Source: a virus. Taken from it: a stretch of DNA of 64,000 bases. This document shows positions 1,539-40,845 of the stretch, in pieces. Location of the stretch: IMG/VR virus record IMGVR_UViG_3300036985_009306, positions 64,001-128,000 of that record; one strand, written 5' to 3'. The notes under the pieces are model-generated. The model searched no databases, was not told the origin of the DNA, and was given only the letters and a program-made list of their open reading frames with translations. The first letter of the stretch is position 1. Every line of letters begins with the position of its first letter. A program made the position numbers and the translations under genes.

Positions 1539-1570
1539 TTTTTTATAGTTTTTATAAAAAGAGTTTTATC

Positions 1571-1795
1571 ATGAAAAATATTTCTAAATTAGCTGAACAG
1601 ATTGTTTCAAAAACATTGACAAATTTACCTTCAATTAAGGTTGATTTTAGTACTGTTAAGAAAAAAATAGAAAAACTTGAAAAAGGGATTTCTACATTTA
1701 ATGGAGATGATTCTTCTTGGGAAACCATTGAAAACTGGAAACCATTAGCTGAAGAAATAATTCAAGATTTAGAAAGCATAATGGAGAAATTATAA
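1571..1795 (+). CDS. Hypothetical 74-aa protein (begins MKNISKLAEQIV)
   Basis: ORF track. Its stop abuts the next ATG, and the GGAG near its 3' end serves as RBS for the next gene. Confidence 0.7.
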   Translation: MKNISKLAEQIVSKTLTNLPSIKVDFSTVKKKIEKLEKGISTFNGDDSSWETIENWKPLAEEIIQDLESIMEKL

Positions 1796-1830
1796 TGCAT
1801 AAATATTCTGACAATTGTCCGTTCTGCAAA
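1795..1830 (+). repeat. MHKYS[DE]NCxxC leader repeat (copies at 1795, 3174, 3814, 4797, 7024, 40133)
   Basis: ATGCATAAATATTC is identical in all six copies, followed by Asp/Glu, AATTGT and a second Cys codon three codons later. Confidence 0.95.
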
Positions 1831-3171
1831 ATTTTTAAAGCAGATGACAAAGATAAATCTAGTTATGATAAAGAAGTACATCCAAATAATAAAAAATTTT
1901 GGAAATCTTTACCGAGCAACTCAGAACATGCTCTTGGTCGTCATCCTGTTTTTACATTAAGTGGTGAAGAGCTTGATAGAGCTTCATACAAACATACTAA
2001 AGATTTATCTGAAAAACACAAAGTAAAAGATGAAGAATTAGGCATGCTATTCCAACAAATGATAAAAAAAGAACATGCTCATAAGAAAAAACTTGAAGAA
2101 CTTGCTGTAAGTGCTGTAGCAAAAATGATGAAAGTAGACAAGAGTGAACTTGTGGCAAAACTTACTAATGAAGTTGATATTAATGAAACTGAGCCTCTTA
2201 AACCAGAAGAAATGAAAGCCTTGCCAAAGAATCTTCTTGATGAAGCAAATAAACGTATAACGAGTAATGCATTTGCACAGGGCGCATCTGTGCATGCTTA
2301 TCTAACTGCACATTTTTTTGAAGAAATACAAGATGAGATAAAGAAGATAGACCCTAAACTTGTAGATATTTATTCTAAAATTACCACAGGTTCACATAAG
2401 TTATATTGGAAACTAGATATGTCGGTTATGGGTTTGGGAAATGCTGCTGTGGGATCTGTTAGACCAAAGCAAGATAATGATGGTGATATCAAAATGGAAG
2501 CAAAAGCACCAGTGTTTATTGTTTTAGTGCAAGAACTTGTTAAAGGAGTTTTAGAATTAAAGTATTTAAAACATTTGCAACAAAAATCATCAGAGGAACT
2601 TAGTGACGATGATATTAAAAAGATATTTCAATATGCAGATAAAATTGAAGATGAGCCAAGATTGATTCAAATTGGTCCTGAGTTATGGAGGAGATTTTTG
2701 AAAGTTCTTAATAGTTCTAAAGTTAAAGGCTCTAAGTCTCCTGTAGAAGTTTATGAGCATTTGATGAAGCTTCCACCTAAAGATTTGCATAAGTTTGTTC
2801 AATTAGTAGTAGATGAGCCTGATAAAGCTCCACATGAACTCGAGTTATTACTTGAAGATGATAATAAAGTCGATCTTGAGCAATTATTAAAAGAGCTAGA
2901 GAATCCAGAAGATATAAAATTTTCTGCTGCAGGACCAATGACAGCACCGATGCCAGTTAAAACTCCAACACCTACAAAGCAGCCTTATGAAGTTCCAGGG
3001 AAAAACCCAAGAGTAATTCCATTACCACAACCTAAGAATACAGCTCCTGTTAAGACACCTGTTAAAACACCTGTTAAAACTCCAGCACCAGCAAAAGAAG
3101 TTCCTGGGCAGAAACCTCGTGTTATTCCTTTACCACAGCCCAAAAATGATTTTATTAAAAAATCAAAATAA
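1795..3171 (+). CDS. Hypothetical protein with MHKYS-CxxC leader and Pro-rich repeat tail; possible virion internal protein
   Basis: N-terminus MHKYSDNCPFCK. The core NKRITSNAFAQGASVHAY resembles a family I recall from uncultured large phages (unverified). C-terminal EVPGxxPRVIPLPQPKN x2 and PVKT repeats. Confidence 0.8.
   Translation: MHKYSDNCPFCKIFKADDKDKSSYDKEVHPNNKKFWKSLPSNSEHALGRHPVFTLSGEELDRASYKHTKDLSEKHKVKDEELGMLFQQMIKKEHAHKKKLEELAVSAVAKMMKVDKSELVAKLTNEVDINETEPLKPEEMKALPKNLLDEANKRITSNAFAQGASVHAYLTAHFFEEIQDEIKKIDPKLVDIYSKITTGSHKLYWKLDMSVMGLGNAAVGSVRPKQDNDGDIKMEAKAPVFIVLVQELVKGVLELKYLKHLQQKSSEELSDDDIKKIFQYADKIEDEPRLIQIGPELWRRFLKVLNSSKVKGSKSPVEVYEHLMKLPPKDLHKFVQLVVDEPDKAPHELELLLEDDNKVDLEQLLKELENPEDIKFSAAGPMTAPMPVKTPTPTKQPYEVPGKNPRVIPLPQPKNTAPVKTPVKTPVKTPAPAKEVPGQKPRVIPLPQPKNDFIKKSK
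2941..3147 (+). repeat. Intragenic repeats: (PVKT)n 12-bp tandem units and duplicated EVPGxxPRVIPLPQPKN
   Basis: cctgttaagaca/cctgttaaaaca/cctgttaaaact tandem units, flanked by two synonymously diverged 17-codon copies. Confidence 0.9.
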
Positions 3172-3173
3172 TT

Positions 3174-3821
3174 ATGCATAAATATTCTGAAAATTGTCCA
3201 TTTTGTAAGATTTCTGGTATAGATATGTTTGAATTAACTCCAGAAGAGAAAATAGAACTAGAAGAAATTGATAGAGAATTGGTAAAAGAAATAGATGAAA
3301 GAAAAGATAAGTCAAGAAAATTAAGAAAAGAAAACCAAGAGATATTAAAAAAACAAAAAGAAATTTTATTGACACAAGGCATTGCATTAACTGCTGAAAA
3401 CAAAACTGACCATAAAATTAATAGTATTTATAGTTTTTCAATAGATTTAAAAAGCCCATTTGCAATAGAGATTTCTTATTTTAGAAGAATATATAATGTT
3501 GCGCATTATGATGAAATAAAAAGAGAATTTTTAGACAAATTAAATTTTAAAATGTTAGATGAATATGAGTATCTTGATACAAAAGCAAGATCTCAATGTA
3601 GACATGCTGAAATGATTAATGTAAGTTTTTTAAAAACTTGTAGAAAATTAGGTGAATTTTTAAAAAGATTTTTTAAAACCAAACAAGATACAAGATATAA
3701 GATTTATGAAGTACACATTCTTGATACAAGACTTGGTATGGTAAAAGAATATGTAAGTTTTGTTGAGCAAATAGAAAAGATTTTGGAAAAAATAAAACAG
3801 GACAAAAAACAAAATGCATAA
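3174..3821 (+). CDS. MHKYS-leader paralog family member 1
   Basis: Starts MHKYSENCPFCK..FELTPEEK. Shares LDKLxxKMLDEYEYLDT with 3814 and 4755. Confidence 0.8.
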   Translation: MHKYSENCPFCKISGIDMFELTPEEKIELEEIDRELVKEIDERKDKSRKLRKENQEILKKQKEILLTQGIALTAENKTDHKINSIYSFSIDLKSPFAIEISYFRRIYNVAHYDEIKREFLDKLNFKMLDEYEYLDTKARSQCRHAEMINVSFLKTCRKLGEFLKRFFKTKQDTRYKIYEVHILDTRLGMVKEYVSFVEQIEKILEKIKQDKKQNA

Positions 3822-4758
3822 ATATTCAGATAATTGTTTGTTATGTAAAGTGTATTCAAATATTGACACTTTTGAACTTACATCTGAAGATAAAGTCAAG
3901 TTAAAAGAAGCACTTAATGATCTTAAAAAACAAGAAGATGATGTATTAGAAGTATGGAAAAAAATTAAAAAACAAAATGATGAAGATTTGAAAAAAATGG
4001 AAGAGATTTTGTCTAAAGTAACTAAAAGAATTCCAGAAACAAGAGCAACTTATTTTGATGTTAAGTATTTTTATGAGAAACCTTCAAAAGAAGTTTTAGA
4101 CAAGTTAGAACCTAAAATGCTAGATGAATATGATCATCTTGATACAAGAACTGAAGCTCAAGTAAAAAAGATAAGCAAAACTGATCTTTTTAAAACAATG
4201 AATTTAGAAAAAATTAAAGATTTTTTAAAAGATTTATTTAAAACAAAAATTACTGTAACAAGAGATCAGCTACATAATGTAGAAAGTTTGAATTTTAAAC
4301 ATAAAGGCAGACTTTATAAAGTTTTTTTAACAGAAACAATTTTTGTAAAGTCCTGGATTGATTTTAAAACTTCGTTAAAAGATGAAGATGATGTTTTAGA
4401 TCAAATAGAAGAAATTTTAAAAACTATTAGATCAAGAGAAAAGGTTAAGACTCATTATGATATTTTTAAAGATCTTAAGTTTACAGAAATTATAAACAAA
4501 TATGATTTAAAAGTTGATAAGAAAAAAGAAGGAACTTTCATTTTAAGAATAAATGAGCGTTCAGGTGAAAGAATAACCCTATCAGATACAGGTAGATTAA
4601 GGTATTATAGAGATAAGTATGATGAATATGCAAGACTTCTTATGACTCTTACAAGAAGTGATGAAGAAAATTTTACAAAAAAAATGTATTATGAGTTTTT
4701 AGATAAAATTGATTCTTTTCTTACGAAACAAAAAAAGAACAAAGAAAAAACAAAATGA
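3814..4758 (+). CDS. MHKYS-leader paralog family member 2
   Basis: Starts MHKYSDNCLLCK..FELTSEDK. Shares KEVLDKLEPKMLDEYDHLD and KYDLKV...SxTGxLRYYxD with 4755. Confidence 0.8.
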   Translation: MHKYSDNCLLCKVYSNIDTFELTSEDKVKLKEALNDLKKQEDDVLEVWKKIKKQNDEDLKKMEEILSKVTKRIPETRATYFDVKYFYEKPSKEVLDKLEPKMLDEYDHLDTRTEAQVKKISKTDLFKTMNLEKIKDFLKDLFKTKITVTRDQLHNVESLNFKHKGRLYKVFLTETIFVKSWIDFKTSLKDEDDVLDQIEEILKTIRSREKVKTHYDIFKDLKFTEIINKYDLKVDKKKEGTFILRINERSGERITLSDTGRLRYYRDKYDEYARLLMTLTRSDEENFTKKMYYEFLDKIDSFLTKQKKNKEKTK

Positions 4759-5672
4759 ACATACTTAATTTTGTTTTAAGAGAAAGCAAACCTTATATGC
4801 ATAAATATTCTGACAATTGTCCATTTTGTAAGATTTACTCAGGATTAGACACATTTGAACTTACACCAGAAGAGAAATCAAAATTATTAGAAATTGATAA
4901 AGATTTTAAAAAACAAGATGAAGAATATGTTTCTGTTATAGATAAATATAAAATTTCTAATGATGAAGATTTAAAAAGAATAAAAGAAATTTTGTTAGAA
5001 GTTACTGATAATTTACCTAAAATTGATTATTTAGTCACTTTAGGTAAAGATGGCAAGATAGAATATATTAATGAAGAGCTTAAAAAAGAAGTTTTAGATA
5101 AATTAGATCCTAAAAAACTTGAAGAATATGAATATCTTGATGCAAGAACCAGATCTAGATATAAAAAAGCTAAAGACATAACAATTGATTTTTCAAAAAC
5201 AATTAATTTTTTAAAAATTGTAAGCAAACTTGAATCATTTTTAAAAGATGATCTTAAGTTAAAAATTAATAAAAGTTTTGACAATTTTATTTATGATTAT
5301 GGAAATAAAACATATCATATATTTTTGGGTTTTAAACAAGATATTTATCAACAAGTGGAAAAAAATCTTAAGACTATGAAGAAAAAAAATGAAAAAAAGG
5401 TTACTAATAAAATTGTTGATGACCCTAAATTTAAACAAATTGTTGAAAAATATGATTTAAAAGTTCATTTTAAAACCAAGGGTGGATTTACTTTGACTGT
5501 AGATGAAGGAACGGGTGAAAAATATGATGTTTCAAGTACTGGAAATTTAAGATATTATAATGACAGATACTCTCAAGGAAGTCTTATTCTTAGTTCAAAT
5601 GACAATATTAAGATTTTAGATAAAATTGATGAAAATATAACTAAGAGAAGAAAAAAAATGGAGAAGAAATGA
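4755..5672 (+). CDS. MHKYS-leader paralog family member 3, preceded by MNILNFVLRE leader
   Basis: Starts MNILNFVLRESKPY-MHKYSDNCPFCK. Paralogous to 3814 along most of its length. Confidence 0.8.
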   Translation: MNILNFVLRESKPYMHKYSDNCPFCKIYSGLDTFELTPEEKSKLLEIDKDFKKQDEEYVSVIDKYKISNDEDLKRIKEILLEVTDNLPKIDYLVTLGKDGKIEYINEELKKEVLDKLDPKKLEEYEYLDARTRSRYKKAKDITIDFSKTINFLKIVSKLESFLKDDLKLKINKSFDNFIYDYGNKTYHIFLGFKQDIYQQVEKNLKTMKKKNEKKVTNKIVDDPKFKQIVEKYDLKVHFKTKGGFTLTVDEGTGEKYDVSSTGNLRYYNDRYSQGSLILSSNDNIKILDKIDENITKRRKKMEKK

Positions 5673-7021
5673 ATATACTTAATTTTGTCTTAAGAGAAGC
5701 ACATATTGAGAAATGGGCGCTGTTGCAACAGCAACAGTTAGACAATATGGTGCATCAAGTTTTTGCTAAATATAAAGAAAAATTGATAAACAAAAAACCT
5801 GATGACACGTATTTTCTACATCATTCTTATACAGATTATGTTAAAGAATTAAAGAAGCCTTATTTTGAATATGCTAAAAAGTTTAATGAACATGTAGTTA
5901 AGAAGTTAACAATTGATTTTAAAAACGAAAAATTGCTTTTAATTTGGTTATTAGAACAAGTTGTCACAAACCAAATAAAAGCTGTTTCAATTGATGAAGA
6001 TGTTGATGTAATTAAAAACAATTTACATCTTTATTTTGAAAATAAAGGAAAAATTCATAAAAACATATTTGATTCTACATATAATGACCTTAAAAAATGG
6101 GTTGTACCTTATCAACCTAAAGGTGAAGAAAGCAAGCATAAAAAATTTTTAAGCAAACCTTATATTGAGGGAAAAGAATACAAAATTTATAAAATAACAA
6201 AAGTTGATGAGTGTGTAAAGATAAGCAAAGGAACATCATGGTGTACTCAAGGCATAGCAAATGCTGAGTCTTATCTTAAAAAAGGTCCATTGTGGTTAGT
6301 GACAAAAAATGATAAAAGATTTGCTTTGATAAGTTTTGAGTCTGGTTCTTACATGGATGTTAATGATCAGAGGCTAAAACCTGAAGTTGTATTTGAAATT
6401 TTTGATATTTGGCCAGAAGCTGAAAAGAAATTGATTGAAAATTTGAAGGGTAATAGTTATTCAATAAAGTTTTTAAGAAATCTAAGTGAAGAACAACAAC
6501 TTGAGATGATGCCAAAGGAACCTGATGTTTTTCAACATTTATATAAACCAACTGAAAAAGTAATAAATAAAGCTGTTAAAGAAGATGGTTCTAATATTCA
6601 ATATGTCAAGAATCCTTCAAAAGAACTTCAAGAAGAAGCAATTAAGCAAGATGCAGATAACATTGAAAGAATAGATCATATAGATCCTGAAATTGAAAAA
6701 AGACTTATAGATATTAATCCAGATGCAATAAAACATATGAAAAATCCTTCTGAGGAAACTCAAGAAAAAGTTGTCAGGTTACATGGATTAGCAATTAAAC
6801 ATATCAAAGATCCATCTGAAAAGGTTAAATTATTAGCTGTAAAACAAAATGGTAAAGCAATTAGACATTTAAAAGATCCTTCTGTTGAAGTTCAAATGGC
6901 AGCTGTTAATAATAAATGGCATTCTCTTGCTTATATTAAAAATCCAGATAAAAAAGTAATAGAAAGAGCAATAGAGATTGATCCAAGAGCTGAAGAATTT
7001 GTTGACATGAAAGCAATTTAA
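5669..7021 (+). CDS. MNILNFVLRE-leader protein with GTxWC domain and C-terminal helical repeats (DUF4116-like)
   Basis: Central motif ISKGTSWCTQG...YLKKGPLW. About 7 repeats of the type AVKQNGKAIRHLKDPSVEVQMA. Confidence 0.75.
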   Translation: MNILNFVLREAHIEKWALLQQQQLDNMVHQVFAKYKEKLINKKPDDTYFLHHSYTDYVKELKKPYFEYAKKFNEHVVKKLTIDFKNEKLLLIWLLEQVVTNQIKAVSIDEDVDVIKNNLHLYFENKGKIHKNIFDSTYNDLKKWVVPYQPKGEESKHKKFLSKPYIEGKEYKIYKITKVDECVKISKGTSWCTQGIANAESYLKKGPLWLVTKNDKRFALISFESGSYMDVNDQRLKPEVVFEIFDIWPEAEKKLIENLKGNSYSIKFLRNLSEEQQLEMMPKEPDVFQHLYKPTEKVINKAVKEDGSNIQYVKNPSKELQEEAIKQDADNIERIDHIDPEIEKRLIDINPDAIKHMKNPSEETQEKVVRLHGLAIKHIKDPSEKVKLLAVKQNGKAIRHLKDPSVEVQMAAVNNKWHSLAYIKNPDKKVIERAIEIDPRAEEFVDMKAI

Positions 7022-7023
7022 TT

Positions 7024-7206
7024 ATGCATAAATATTCAGACAATTGTTTACTTTGTAAGATATATTCAAGTGCTAATACATTTGAATTAACTCCAGAAGA
7101 AAAAATAGAGTTAGAAGAAAGTGATAAAGAATTAGAAAAAGAAATAACAGAAAGAAAAAATAAATTAACAAAATCTGAATTAAAAGAACTTCTTCAAATA
7201 GAATAA
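7024..7206 (+). CDS. Short (60-aa) MHKYS-leader paralog, possibly truncated remnant
   Basis: MHKYSDNCLLCKIYSS..TFELTPEEKIELEE closely matches the N-termini of 3174/3814/4755, then stops. Confidence 0.6.
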   Translation: MHKYSDNCLLCKIYSSANTFELTPEEKIELEESDKELEKEITERKNKLTKSELKELLQIE

Positions 7207-7220
7207 ATTCTATTTTTATC

Positions 7221-7280
7221 AAGACTACATCTTCAAGATGCTCATAGACCTGGTAGTCAAGGGAGAGCATCTCAAATTCC
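7221..7280 (+). ncRNA. Putative structured cis-RNA element, copy 1 (pseudoknot/switch); strand inferred
   Basis: GACTAC(7223-28) pairs with GTAGTC(7253-58), and AGATGCTC(7236-43) with GAGCATCT(7265-72), in a-b-a'-b' order. Aligns with the copy at 22352. Confidence 0.65.
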
Positions 7281-7317
7281 TCTTTATTTCTAAAAAATTT
7301 ATAAAAAGTAATAAGTC

Positions 7318-7848
7318 ATGGCCACAACAGCTGTACAAAGTCCAGTACCCATTTCCTGGAGCATTAAAGGAGCTGCAAATGTTCCTCCTTTAACAATGCT
7401 TATTAACCCAGCAAATTTAGACATAACTTATACTCCCTTAATCACAGAAACTAGAACTCTTGGCGGTTTTGTCCATGAATACTGGGGTGAACAATTAACT
7501 TCTCTTTCAGCCTCAGGAAAAACTGCAATGTTTATAGATAGAACTCAAGGTCTAACAAATGATACAAGATCTACAGAATCATATCAATACTTCATGTCTT
7601 TATTAAATATCTATAAAAACAATGGGAAAGGATACACTACAGATTTTTCTACAGATACAATTCCTGCTTTTAGAGCAAATCCTACAAAAATAGCAAGTCT
7701 TGGTATTGTATCTATGGTATTTGACAAAAGACACTATGATGGTTACTTTGAATCTTTTTCATATACAGAAGAAGCTGCAATGCCATTTAATCTTGACTAC
7801 AATTTTGTATTTAGAGCAATGCGAATTATAGGACAATTAACTGTTTGA
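7318..7848 (+). CDS. Putative tail tube initiator / baseplate-proximal protein (paralog A)
   Basis: LTMLINPANLDITY...GGFVHEYWGEQLTSLSASG motif. Position between tape measure and hub. Confidence 0.6.
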   Translation: MATTAVQSPVPISWSIKGAANVPPLTMLINPANLDITYTPLITETRTLGGFVHEYWGEQLTSLSASGKTAMFIDRTQGLTNDTRSTESYQYFMSLLNIYKNNGKGYTTDFSTDTIPAFRANPTKIASLGIVSMVFDKRHYDGYFESFSYTEEAAMPFNLDYNFVFRAMRIIGQLTV

Positions 7849-24963: not shown

Positions 24964-27900
24964 ATGCTACCTACTCCACCTACTGGGTTATACGTTGTTG
25001 CTTTTAGTAGTCAAGTTCAGATAAATTGGGTTCAAAATCTTGAGACTGATATTCAAGGTTATAATGTCTATAATTCTACTACTTCAGGAGGCGGGCTTAG
25101 TGGGTACATAAAACTTAATAATACTTTAGTAGAAGCAATTTCTAAAGTTCAACAAAATCTTTTGAGCACACAAGAAATTGTTCAACAAACAGGTGATGTA
25201 AAAACTACAACAGTAGTACAAAATTTTGAACAGGTAAATGTCTTTAGTTTTTTACATCAAAATATAACTGAAAATACGACACAGTATTATGTCGTCACAG
25301 CAGTTAATACATCTGGGGAAGAAAGTGTAACTTCAATTGAACTTCAAGCAATTCCTTTGACTATATCTACAGAAGTTGCAACTATTCCTACAAGAACACA
25401 GAATGATATAAGTCTAGATTATATTACAGAACTGCTTGAAAGAAGTCCTCTTTTAGATGTCAAGCCTGGCTCAGTAATTCGTCAATTGCATGTAGATCCA
25501 AACAGTTTGGAAATGTATTGGGCATTTGTTAGAGAAAATTTTGCAATGAAGTCTCAATCATTTTTAAATCTTAGACAATTAGATGATTCAAATGGTGATA
25601 GAATATCTGATCCAGTTTCTAGTTCATCATACAAACAATTATTGAAGTTAGCATTTTTCTTTACTTCTGATGATCAAGTTCAAACTCTTATAGATCAATC
25701 ATTTGATGCATTAGCTTCTAATTATGGAAAAACAAGATTGGGTGCAACATTTTCGACTACAGATGTGACTTATTATACTACAACGATTCCTTCTACAGAC
25801 TTATCTGTAGCTTTGGGAGATCCGGTAAGCACAACACCGACAGAGACACAATCTTCTATAACATTTAATACGCTTTCTAGCGGTATAATGCAAGTTTCTC
25901 AAATCAACAATTATTATAATGCTGTAACTAAAAGATATGAACTTGTAATTCCTGTTCAAGCTGCTATTGCAGGATTAAATGGAAATGTTAATGCAAATAC
26001 AATTATAAATACAAAAACTACAGGATTTTCTGTTATTAATCCTAAATCAGCATTTGGAGGTATTGATGAAGAATCAAATGCAGATTTAGCTGATAGAGTT
26101 CAACTTTCATTTGTAGGGTTAGATGTAGGAACAGTATATGGGTATAAAAGGACATGTACTCAAATATCAGGTGTTAGAGATGTGATTGTAGTTACTGCAG
26201 GTGACTCTCTAATGCAACGAGATTATGACGAAGTTAGGAAGAAACATGTCTATGGTAAGGTGGATATATACATAAGGGGTGGGGAAAATGCACAAACGCA
26301 GGATAACGTAGGGTTTTTATATGATCAATCTAATGACGAACAATTTACTATTTTAGTACCTTTGTCTACTTCACCTTCTCCTAATTATGCAATTATAGAA
26401 ACACAAAACATTAATGTCACAACATCATCTCCGATTTACATGGTTTCTAGAATATTTAAAGATACAGCAGGTCAAGATTATGATATTCTTGGCAACTGGA
26501 CTGTCTATAAAAATTCTATTTCTTTAGATAAAAGTACAGAGGTTGATGTGGATTTGACAACAGGTCAAATTACACTTTTAAACCCATTAACTGCAGGTGA
26601 TTTTGTAACTGCTGATTATCAATACAAAGTTTCAATAAGCTCAGAAGCAATACCGGGTAGTGTAGGACAAACTAATTTTACTTTATTACATTCACCTGTT
26701 GTTAAAAGATCATATACTATATTTAAAAATAGCATTGCATTAGTGGAAAATGTCGATTATACTTTGAACACATTAAATGGACAACTTGTATTAGTTGTGC
26801 CTCTATTGTTAGGAAACATATTAACTGCAACTTATCAATATATAATAACTGTGACAACAGAAGTTGTTATTGCAAGTGCTGTAGGAGGAGAGACATCAGC
26901 AAATCTTGCACATTTTCCAATTGTAGAAAGTATGTTAATAGGTGTTGAGGGTACTACTTTAGAACTGGATCCAAGTAATGCAACAAATCATTCAATAGGT
27001 ATGGATTTTTTGGATGAAATTTTTGTTACTTACAGATATAGAGCAAGCAATCCTATTCTTTTGCAGACTCAACCTGCAGAAAGTATTATTTCTATTGTTG
27101 GAAGCGTAAGTGGTCCTTTGCAAGCAGATGTGAATTATTCACTTAATAAAATAGATGATGTTCTTTTAGAAGGAAATTCTAGTAAGGCAAATAGAACTGT
27201 ACAAATAATGTATGCTAACGGTGTACCAGTAGGAACTTTGACAGTTTCATCTGAGACTGTAGTTTTAGTTAATAGTGAATATAGACAATTAAGTCAATAT
27301 GCAATTGATATTCCATCTATTGTAGTTAGTCTGGGTGCTATAGTCTATTCTATAAATTCTGACTATACATTATTACCAGAATCTAGTGGAAATAAGGTAC
27401 AAATTGCACGTTCTAGAAATTCTACTATACCTAATGGTAGTCAGATTACAGTCGGCTATGATTATGGAGAAATTTTAACTATTACATATAATGCCAATCA
27501 ATTAGTCAATGTAGTTCAAGATACTATAGATGTGACAAGACATGTTACTGCAGATGTTTTAATTAAAGATGTTTTAGAGACATTAGTAGATTTAGAGATT
27601 TCTGTCGTATTAGTTCCTGGAGCAAATTCAATAACCGTAAAAAGCGATGTTGCTACTGCACTTTCAAATCAATTTGATTCATTGAAATTGGGAATAGGAA
27701 TAGCTCAAAGTGACGTCATAAGTGCAGTTGAGGCTGTTACTAATGTAAAGTCTGTTGTGGTACCTTTGACAAAAATGGTAAAAGCAAATGGTACTCAAAT
27801 AAATAGAGAAGTCATTGGTGCATCTTTTGAACCATTATTGGGTTCTATTAGATCATATTCGACTGGACCAGGAGCTCTGTTGAATTCAACTCTAGGACCA

Positions 27901-39192: not shown

Positions 39193-40083
39193 ATGGATTT
39201 ACTTGTGATAGGGGGTAATGGGTTTGTAGGTGCAAATTTTATTCAATATATTTTAGAAAAGTATCATGATTACAATGTTATATGTATAGATAAACATACA
39301 AATGAGAATATAGAAAAAACTGAAAAATTTCATTTTTATCAAGTAGATTTTTGTAATATAGAAGAAGTATTGAAAGTTTTTAAGTTTTGGTATAGTTTTG
39401 ATATAATAGTAAATTTTGCTGAAGAAAATAATGAAAATATTATAGATTCAAATATTTATGGTGTGTACAAGATTTTTGAAATAATTAAGAAATATAAGGT
39501 TAAACATTTTTTACAAGTTTCTACAACAGATGTTTATGATATATTAAATGATGAACAAAGATTTGCCGAAACTTCTAATACAAGTCTTTATTCTGCTTCT
39601 AAAGCTTCAGCTGATTTAATTGCATTATCATATTTTCACAGTTTTAAGATACCTGTAGTAGTTTCAAGATGTTCAAATAATTTTGGGATTTATCAAAATA
39701 CTAATGAATTTATTCCCTCTTTGATAATAAATGCTTTGACTAAGAAGAAGCTTATAGTTTACGAGGATGATATTAGAAATTGGATTAATGTTTTGGATCA
39801 TTGTAGAGCTTTAGATACTTTGATGCATTATGGCAAATTTGGTGAGATTTATAATATAAAAGGAAATCGACATAGTAGTTTAGAAATAGCAAGATTAATA
39901 ATGAATTATTTGAATTTACCTTTAGATATGTTGGAAGTGAGATCTAGAGAATATAGTTTTAAAAGCGAAATAGATTATTCAAAAATAGGTGATGAATTTG
40001 GGTGGAAACCTGTCTTAGATTTCAAAGAGAGTTTGATTGATACAATTGAATCATATAGGACAAATTTTGTAAAGATTTTATAA
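39193..40083 (+). CDS. rfbB: NAD-dependent epimerase/dehydratase, degenerate dTDP-glucose 4,6-dehydratase (RmlB-like)
   Basis: GGNGFVG, YSASKASAD, SRCSNNFG, RNWINVLDHCRAL, GEIYNI. ATG 39193 chosen (GGAG upstream) over TTG 39181. Confidence 0.75.
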   Translation: MDLLVIGGNGFVGANFIQYILEKYHDYNVICIDKHTNENIEKTEKFHFYQVDFCNIEEVLKVFKFWYSFDIIVNFAEENNENIIDSNIYGVYKIFEIIKKYKVKHFLQVSTTDVYDILNDEQRFAETSNTSLYSASKASADLIALSYFHSFKIPVVVSRCSNNFGIYQNTNEFIPSLIINALTKKKLIVYEDDIRNWINVLDHCRALDTLMHYGKFGEIYNIKGNRHSSLEIARLIMNYLNLPLDMLEVRSREYSFKSEIDYSKIGDEFGWKPVLDFKESLIDTIESYRTNFVKIL

Positions 40084-40132
40084 TATTCAAATACATGCAA
40101 TTTATTCCATTGAAACATTAATAGGAGGTGTT

Positions 40133-40768
40133 ATGCATAAATATTCAGAGAATTGTCAAATTTGTAACATAGTTGGTGATTTTTCAGCTAAAACAAGTTC
40201 TAATATGAGCATTGGGGAAGCTAAGAGGAAAGTTGAAGAGCTTTTAAAAAATCCAGAACTTTTAAAACAAGTAGGAGATGCTCTTAAGAGTGCTTCATTG
40301 AACAAGGAAGCTGCTATTTCTCCTTTAATAAGAACATTTGTTCTTGCTCTAATGACATTAGCCCCTTCTATTTTTGCTGTTCCAAGTATTCAAAGTGATC
40401 TTGAGATGAAGCTTAAACATGGTGATAATATTACAATGGAACAAGTAAATACAATGGAAGATAGAGCCAAGAAAGAAATGCAGACAATGACAGAGACTTC
40501 TGTCAATAAAGTTAATGATGCAATTAAAGATGATAAAGGTAAAGAAAAACAGGTTGATTTTGGAATTCAAGTAGGCAAAGAAAAGTTAATGGCAGCAAAT
40601 GCATATGAGGCCAATATTCTAAAAAATATGGCACAATTGCATAAAATTCTTTTTGCACAGATGAAATCAGGAATTATGGATCAAGCAAGTTATGATAAAG
40701 CTTGTCAAATATTGATAAGTTCTTTTAATAAAGCTATAGCAGGACAGGCTCAAGAGGTTGTTCTTTAG
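40133..40768 (+). CDS. MHKYS-leader protein with unrelated helical body
   Basis: Starts MHKYSENCQICN. Strong AGGAGG RBS. Followed by a terminator. Confidence 0.8.
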   Translation: MHKYSENCQICNIVGDFSAKTSSNMSIGEAKRKVEELLKNPELLKQVGDALKSASLNKEAAISPLIRTFVLALMTLAPSIFAVPSIQSDLEMKLKHGDNITMEQVNTMEDRAKKEMQTMTETSVNKVNDAIKDDKGKEKQVDFGIQVGKEKLMAANAYEANILKNMAQLHKILFAQMKSGIMDQASYDKACQILISSFNKAIAGQAQEVVL

Positions 40769-40805
40769 CAATTTATAAGTTAAAAAAACTGAAAATTATG
40801 ATAGA

Positions 40806-40845
40806 AATGTAACAGGGCGTATGCTCTGTTACATTTTTTGTTTTT
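40806..40845 (+). terminator. Intrinsic terminator
   Basis: 13-bp stem AATGTAACAGGGC / GCTCTGTTACATT with GTAT loop, followed by TTTTGTTTTT. Confidence 0.85.

Follow-up and report, generated by a model that had tools for sequence, protein, structure and literature searches.

A portable twelve-residue N-terminal His/Cys tag on unrelated proteins of uncultured giant phages: a candidate docking leader

The stretch of viral DNA considered here (the window, 64,000 nucleotides) comprises bases 64001-128000 of the 192-kb record IMGVR_UViG_3300036985_009306 (31% G+C, 97% complete), and the element under study is a short tag, MHKYS-D/E-N-C-x-x-C-K, found at the N-terminus of several of its predicted proteins. 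A preliminary description of this DNA had reported six open reading frames (ORFs) sharing the tag, and a search with a degenerate DNA pattern for MHKYS[DE]NCxxC bore this out, since the pattern matched exactly at 1795, 3174, 3814, 4797, 7024 and 40133, always on the + strand and always at the start of an ORF, with no match in 100 dinucleotide-preserving shuffles. The first five copies lie in an accessory block placed between the tape measure and baseplate genes of a contractile tail (Table 1). The copy at 4797 is found, as had been stated, inside the ORF that opens at 4755, where it occupies codon 15; the frame is open from 4755, and use of the upstream start would put MNILNFVLRESKPY before the tag. 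In the public annotation the start of gene 3814 was called at codon 13, and hence its tag was missed. Together with the copies from other sources described below, these genes establish the tag as a genuine 12-residue N-terminal peptide of giant phages that form a rare, uncultured group.

Table 1. Tagged genes and associated features in the window (positions counted from its first base; aa, amino acids; X and Y, protein modules defined in the text)
Feature	Coordinates	Strand	Remarks
Tagged gene 1	1795..3171	+	458 aa; tag at residues 1-12, variable linker to ~20, conserved all-alpha/beta domain 21-375, disordered Pro-rich C-terminus
Tagged gene 2	3174..3821	+	215 aa; tag-X (coiled coil and EEYEYLD-type module)
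Tagged gene 3	3814..4758	+	314 aa; tag-X-Y
Tagged gene 4	4797..5672	+	291 aa from the tag ATG; tag-X-Y
Truncated 5′ fragment of a tag-X gene	7024..7206	+	60 aa; end of the array
Tagged gene 6	40133..40768	+	211 aa; unrelated body, own Shine-Dalgarno sequence, promoter-like site and terminator
Untagged gene within the array	5669..7021	+	450 aa; DUF4116 repeats
ORF heading the inserted block	1571..1795	+	74 aa; stop overlaps the ATG of gene 1795; no family match
32-nt direct repeat, copy 1	4753..4784	+	repeat family D19
32-nt direct repeat, copy 2	5667..5698	+	at the start of gene 5669; 94% identical to copy 1
Whole accessory block	1552..7317	+	absent from six related loci

A scan of the rest of the genome, which the preliminary description had suggested, added a seventh copy outside the window at G000:24551 (gene g24551), where a 207-aa protein starting with MHKHSNNCQMCK is encoded ahead of a 299-aa gene. 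Elsewhere the tag is rare. Among 2.9 million viral contigs searched with exact and relaxed patterns, it was detected only in this genome and as one diverged copy, MHKHAAHCTICN, on a 196-aa gene of a 424-kb relative (G001), and the twelve pattern matches obtained in 185,579 reference genomes were all due to chance, containing stops or lying in no ORF. Two metagenome contigs carry it as well, L027 with three tandem tagged genes (at 466, 1352 and 1963) and L026 with a single one (129 aa, MHKYSENCQICK), and protein databases add the tagged P0002, P0013, P0010, P0011 and P0167, of which P0002 and P0013 are both encoded on one 23.6-kb NCBI contig. The remaining genes of L026 and L027 have no homologs in this genome, and the tag therefore crosses phage lineages. 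When 1795, P0002, P0020 and P0017 were searched by tblastn against cultured and deposited phages, nothing was recovered but one weak match in an unannotated 635-kb uncultured phage.

The consensus of the tag is MHK[YH]S[DEN]NCxxC[KN], in which the two residues within CxxC vary widely (PF, LL, QI, QM, VI, VF, PI), and the core common to all genomes is M-H-K-[YHF]-x3-C-x2-C-[KND]-[IV]. Asn7, fixed in the pattern first proposed, thus proved not to be strictly invariant across genomes, as it is replaced in one ortholog of 40133 (MHKFSEKCQICK) and in the copy of the 424-kb relative. Apart from this tag, a genome-wide scan of ORF N-termini found as shared 12-mers only MNILNFVLRE, in two ORFs, and one unrelated pair, G000:155958 and G000:183981, both outside the window, which have their first ~22 residues in common (MTDEQRASYIISQSVCA[LM]AEIE) and then diverge.

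The tag is joined to bodies of very different kinds. BLASTP identified 3174, 3814, 4797 and 7024 as paralogs beyond the tag, in agreement with the preliminary description, and added g24551 to them; it gave no match of the 1795 and 40133 bodies to these paralogs or to each other, again as had been proposed, and comparison of the 1795 family with the paralog family by hhalign yielded a probability of 1%. At least five unrelated downstream sequences carry the tag, namely the X-Y superfamily of these paralogs and the 1795, 40133, L026 and G001 types. The X-Y superfamily, as delineated by BLASTP, is a mosaic of module X, made of a long helix and an EEYEYLD-type domain, and module Y, a HYDIxKD...KYDLK domain, and these are found behind the tag in the arrangements tag-X-Y (3814, 4797, P0002), tag-Y-X (L027:466, P0010), tag-X (3174, g24551, L027:1352) and tag-X-relic-X (L027:1963). 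The second unit of L027:1963 holds the sole internal copy of the tag, KHSD--IYFNIYKS, from which Asn7, Cys8 and Cys11 have been lost. Judged from these sequences, the tag stays N-terminal whichever module comes next and decays once it is buried. This reshuffling behind the tag, the diversity of its bodies and the untagged members of the 1795 family uphold the earlier suggestion that the tag is modular.

Structure prediction by AlphaFold2 agreed with this layout. The model of 3814 reached a predicted local distance difference test score (pLDDT) of 79, with residues 1-19 below 50 and module X opening with a ~45-residue helix (H24-67), while that of 1795, based on an 89-sequence alignment, reached a pLDDT of 85 and a predicted template modelling score of 0.80, with residues 21-375 above 95 and the tag at ~48-50. 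According to these models the tag is a flexible appendage and not part of the fold, being predicted with low confidence before two well-folded unrelated bodies. Scans of all tagged proteins with Pfam and PHROGs gave nothing above cut-off, and Foldseek found no usable structural neighbour for the 3814 model in PDB and BFVD or for the 1795 model in PDB.

The preliminary description had taken codon variation as a sign of selection on the peptide, a view that the wider set of copies strengthened. Across 11 copies taken from three sources, synonymous codon variants and zero amino-acid changes were seen at His2, Lys3, Ser5, Asn7 and Cys11, and only Cys8, the sixth invariant residue after Met1, was without synonymous variants, being encoded by TGT throughout. 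The uniform third positions observed within the genome match its codon bias (e.g. 89% CAT, 88% TGT). At the DNA level, the first 24 nt of the tagged genes are near-identical within the genome, but conservation begins at the ATG and the sequence upstream is unrelated between copies; moreover, RNAalifold detected no consensus pairing among the tag copies. The constraint is placed on the peptide because of this synonymous variation, the unrelated upstream DNA and the lack of a consensus RNA fold, and the last two observations ruled out an explanation at the RNA level. Four pairs of cross-genome orthologs show 58-92% identity in the tag, 21-33% in the 12 linker residues behind it and 39-80% in the body, and the layout is therefore that of a tag, a sloppy linker and a body. 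The fifth pair, L027:466 and P0010, has module Y directly after the tag, and there those 12 residues are identical.

The family of the 1795 domain offers a broader view of how such leaders are exchanged. A phmmer search with 1795 against 1.84 billion cluster representatives (E 0.001 or lower) recovered 602 of them, and the matches start at query residue ~21-23, right after the tag. Among 152 representatives and cluster members inspected, the tag was present only in P0013 (68% identical to 1795), and P0014 (61% identical) begins with MFKIANYDSDVHP and is without it. Another short leader followed by a Pro-rich linker was found in 53 of 154 members of the family. For example, in the 269-kb phage L029 (6824-8077 and 10001-11356), the leader F[DNT][KN]xLSx[IV][LI]E (FDKxLSxILE) is common to the 1795-family protein P0017, in which the Pro-rich linker comes next, and to three small tandem neighbouring paralogs; going by sequence comparison, FDKxLSxILE is a second portable leader. 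From these 53 members and the sharing seen in L029 it follows that exchangeable leaders are habitual in the 1795 family, and that MHKYS is the version of one lineage.

Some further features of this family were recorded. P0063, one of its members, starts with MKKCPHCNTLHEDYEGDVNP, a different N-terminal CxxC right before the same domain. Residues 21-375 of 1795 (window positions 1855-2920) define a large family in uncultured large phages for which there is no Pfam or PHROG model, and Glu247 and Lys250 are invariant in it, within a QELxKG helix. Comparison of the 1795 model with a wide PDB set by VIA-align returned a zincin-like metallopeptidase theme at Z 5.0 or lower, a score too low for that identity to be claimed; the domain is possibly a protease-like fold devoid of the metal ligands, as far as the model suggests. 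The ESM Atlas yielded nothing useful for 1795.

The history of the array could be partly read from its relatives. Six related loci carry the 180-aa tail gene in a version that is 70-71% identical, and there it is overlapped directly by the tape measure gene; all of block 1552-7317 is therefore an insertion. P0014 is a 954-aa fusion whose residues 5-424 align to 1795 and whose residues 428-954 align to residues 3-445 of 5669 (E 7e-116), the two halves being linked by Pro-rich PRxIPLPxPKN repeats; 1795 and 5669 are therefore the halves of one ancestral, or elsewhere fused, gene, with three tagged genes between them. The same comparison settled the nature of MNILNFVLRE, which had been considered as a second leader like the capsid-targeting sequence (CTS) of T4: it aligns to interior residues 428-436 of P0014, and its second copy, at 4755, is contained in the 32-nt direct repeat, so that it was rejected as a leader, being interior sequence and part of a duplication repeat. 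These repeats, which flank gene 4797, look like the footprint of a tandem duplication, as their sequences suggest. Within the array no terminator-like site was found on the + strand and promoter-like matches were fewer than in shuffles, which fits co-transcription with the late tail operon.

Fragments of the 5′ ends of tag genes terminate both loci of this genome, at 7024-7206 and as a repeat of the start of g24551, and the tag could plausibly be moved about through recombination at its conserved 5′ end. The second of these fragments belongs to a 136-bp repeat (L028:6504-6637 and 7202-7335, corresponding to G000:24503-24636 and 25201-25334, 698 bp apart) that covers the upstream region, the Shine-Dalgarno sequence, the ATG and the first 81 coding bases with 100% identity, bar the central 18 bp. 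This central segment (TAGGAGCAAAAATGCATA), which contains the Shine-Dalgarno sequence and the ATG, is precisely inverted in the downstream copy, so that the start is destroyed, and in this orientation it reads as an anti-Shine-Dalgarno sequence, with which the near-identical Shine-Dalgarno sequence of the small ORF that comes next could pair. Directly after the repeat (L028 ~7353-7496, G000 ~25352-25495) there is a 47-aa zinc-ribbon ORF (MSNMIECHNCKK...KCPFCGEG...), whose Shine-Dalgarno sequence (GGAGCAAAAC) duplicates the one in front of the tagged gene. For the repeat with its inverted core, a role as a switch or a regulatory leader is conceivable, as is an origin as a recombination scar.

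As to gene 40133, its orthologs P0011 and P0167 retain the tag, and its product contains one strongly hydrophobic segment at residues ~62-87 (Kyte-Doolittle 19-residue mean of 1.96 at residue 65) flanked by helices. The language-model features of this protein (ESM Atlas) resemble those of the type III secretion system translocators SseC, YopD and IpaC at 0.84-0.88, which is a lead only.

The conserved His2, Cys8 and Cys11 of the tag are putative metal ligands. Of 16 tagged proteins tabulated, 9 have no cysteine besides Cys8 and Cys11 and the others have one or two more, and no second CxxC knuckle was found in any of them, which leaves each chain short of the four ligands that mark a zinc ribbon or a rubredoxin. 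Metal binding by the tag is suggested by these three residues, by the few other cysteines and by the knuckle-like sequence. As the residues between the cysteines are variable, a structural knuckle is indicated rather than a tuned redox motif, and since one knuckle and one His cannot fill a tetrahedral site, the fourth ligand would come from a partner, from a second tag or from the free amino terminus, the last of which would explain the strict N-terminal position. Metal sites of this divided kind are known: in the Rad50 zinc hook and the CD4/CD8-Lck zinc clasp, two chains donate one CxxC apiece to a metal site that forms between them and holds the proteins together. The tag is similar in having a single CxxC per chain and a site that would be completed between chains, whereas the known clasps and hooks are internal or C-terminal in cellular proteins and none is a portable N-terminal leader.

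The sole resemblance in PDB was to the N-terminal ENC[IV]FCKII of HIT proteins, which was non-significant (E 0.2-1): the eNCpfCkIy of the tag recalls the ENCVFCKII, ENCIFCKII and DNCIFCKII of 5uvm, 1y23 and 3imi. The CxxC of this motif helps to hold zinc in some HIT-superfamily structures, but the HxHxHxx HIT domain that should come after it is absent here, and PF01230 (HIT) had no match in the tagged proteins or in the genome, although all control genomes matched; a convergence of knuckle shape is possible. The only other ORFs of at least 80 aa in the genome with a single orphan CxxC and no more than three cysteines were G000:17300-17704 (ESCEPCKGF) and G000:19297-19839 (SDCGFCRGF), both outside the window, whose products are, by this pattern, possible half-site partners for the tag. 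Prediction of a complex between 1795 (residues 1-375), 40133 (residues 1-60) and Zn scored 0.00 in a run that had no controls, and speaks neither for nor against binding.

The reading favoured here, to which a probability of roughly 0.4 is given, is that the tag serves its proteins as a common leader for docking or addressing, of Cys2His type and comparable to the T4 CTS or to the signals of extracellular contractile injection systems (eCIS). The tag would be a self-contained portable leader, followed by a short and poorly conserved linker and then by an unrelated accessory protein. His2, Cys8 and Cys11 would form an incomplete single-knuckle metal site, for which the missing ligand would be supplied in trans by one common partner or, possibly, by the free alpha-amino group, and all tagged proteins would thereby be brought to the same place. 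The most likely destination would be the assembling virion, with the proteins delivered together with the DNA; this destination is favoured because the accessory block in the late tail operon and other parts of the morphogenesis region contain most of the copies, and routing to a prohead or an ejection complex is proposed from analogy and from that operon position only. A more specific form of this reading, in which a free N-terminus is needed, the three ligands complete a receptor metal site of the virion or ejection machinery, the cargo is packaged and delivered to the host, and the tag is one of several leaders, FDKxLSxILE being another, that giant phages swap among accessory cargo proteins by recombination at 5′ ends, is tentative and, taken as a whole, unlikely.

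Two known systems come closest. Nothing but the CTS is conserved among the internal proteins of T4, which are diverse in all other parts, and it can be transferred to foreign cargo (PMC3012670, PMC5694885). Like the tag, the CTS of IPI-III and Alt is a short N-terminal leader (10-20 residues) on unrelated, fast-evolving accessory proteins whose genes occur in arrays of diversifying paralogs; unlike it, the tag has no sequence likeness to MKTYQEFIAE, and its His/Cys core is absent from the CTS. In T4 the CTS ends in a prohead-protease site, (L/I)xE, and is removed. The N-terminal signals of the payloads of the Photorhabdus virulence cassette (PVC) and other eCIS are sufficient for loading into the tube lumen (PMC9054023, PMC11495950). 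These are disordered leaders found on unrelated payloads whose genes adjoin those of a contractile machine. The tag, with its pLDDT below 50, heads an array that immediately follows the gene for the tape measure of a contractile tail, but one tagged gene (40133) lies elsewhere. Moreover, eCIS signals are ~50 residues long, poorly conserved and without a Cys motif, whereas the tag has 12 highly conserved residues; eCIS loading needs the Pvc15 AAA ATPase; and the lumen of a phage tail is already occupied by the tape measure protein.

Several observations weigh against the favoured reading. Gene 40133 stands by itself, between a promoter-like site at 40057-40084 and a strong terminator at 40803-40838 (16-bp stem), and it sits among non-structural genes, adjoining those for an epimerase and a helicase. 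Similarly, the tagged genes on L027 and L026 adjoin DUF488, DUF559-nuclease and methyltransferase genes and not structural ones. The relatives with 70-71% identical tail genes are without the 1795 and 40133 proteins, and a single diverged tag gene is found among them, in G001 only, so that the role of the tag is dispensable. Behind the tag there is neither a conserved (L/I)xE nor any other conserved cleavage motif, and L027:466 is without Glu throughout its first 40 residues; the prohead-protease family PF04586 was not found in the genome; PF03420 gave no match either, in a search whose controls also failed. Furthermore, three ligands on a 12-residue peptide fall short of proof of metal binding, and gene conversion between copies could maintain part of the DNA identity seen within the genome.

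Among the alternatives, the strongest, although doubtful, is that the tags associate with one another, two of them sharing one metal through their four Cys in the manner of a zinc hook, or a small cluster, to form homo- or hetero-oligomers for which neither a separate receptor nor a virion is required. The presence of one CxxC knuckle in each tag and none in the bodies would suit such a bridge, the ~45-residue helix that opens module X could hold two tags side by side, and several tagged genes are encoded together in arrays. Pairing through the cysteines, however, would not need the invariant Met1-His2-Lys3, nor would it explain the restriction of the tag to the N-terminus, which a docking leader that uses its free amino terminus would.

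An improbable alternative holds that the peptide has no common function and that the 5′ end is a recombination hitch-hiker, kept as a stretch of DNA homology for the duplication and swapping of cassettes. In its favour are the truncated 5′ fragments at both locus ends, the direct repeats either side of gene 4797, the splitting by three tagged genes of an ancestral gene that is fused in P0014, and the near-identity of the first 24 nt within the genome. Across genomes, however, third codon positions differ under unchanged amino acids, orthologs resemble each other more in the tag than in linker and body, and the internal copy decayed specifically at its cysteines; recombination would thus account for the spread of the tag and not for its conservation.

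It is quite improbable that the tag is a redox-active dithiol, that is, a CPFC/CxxC forming a reversible disulfide like the CP[YF]C of glutaredoxin and serving as a redox switch or tethered reductant, e.g. one that is oxidised inside the virion and becomes reduced upon entry. CPFC does occur in four copies, and g24551 gave sub-threshold Pfam matches to DSBA (E 0.0057) and, at residues 6-55, to a Glrx-like family (E 0.038), but every Pfam score was under the curated cut-off, the pair between the cysteines varies freely, unlike that of tuned redox motifs, and the 3814 and 1795 models show long helices behind the tag and no thioredoxin fold, the disordered residues 1-19 of 3814 passing into helix H24-67. 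In glutaredoxins and thioredoxins the CxxC opens helix 1 of such a fold. Very improbable, finally, is a regulatory start region, either an mRNA site for a translational regulator or an N-terminal degron timing protein abundance, as although conservation begins exactly at the ATG and several copies are translationally coupled with weak Shine-Dalgarno sequences, synonymous variation affects all but one of the six residues that are invariant after Met1, no RNA structure is conserved, and the upstream contexts are mixed, with a strong Shine-Dalgarno sequence at 40133 and g24551 and none at 3174.

Should the tag indeed serve as an address, it would join the T4 CTS as only the second short packaging leader to be well defined in tailed phages, and would be the first with a metal-ligand motif at its core. 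It would provide a compact handle to load foreign proteins into phage particles, and the delivered proteins of uncultured giant phages, such as those for anti-defence or takeover, would become recognisable from sequence alone. Whatever its function, the data show a leader that has spread by grafting onto a large unannotated domain family, that has kept its N-terminal place and that has decayed when buried, and they reveal the 1795 domain family as a habitual exchanger of N-terminal leaders.

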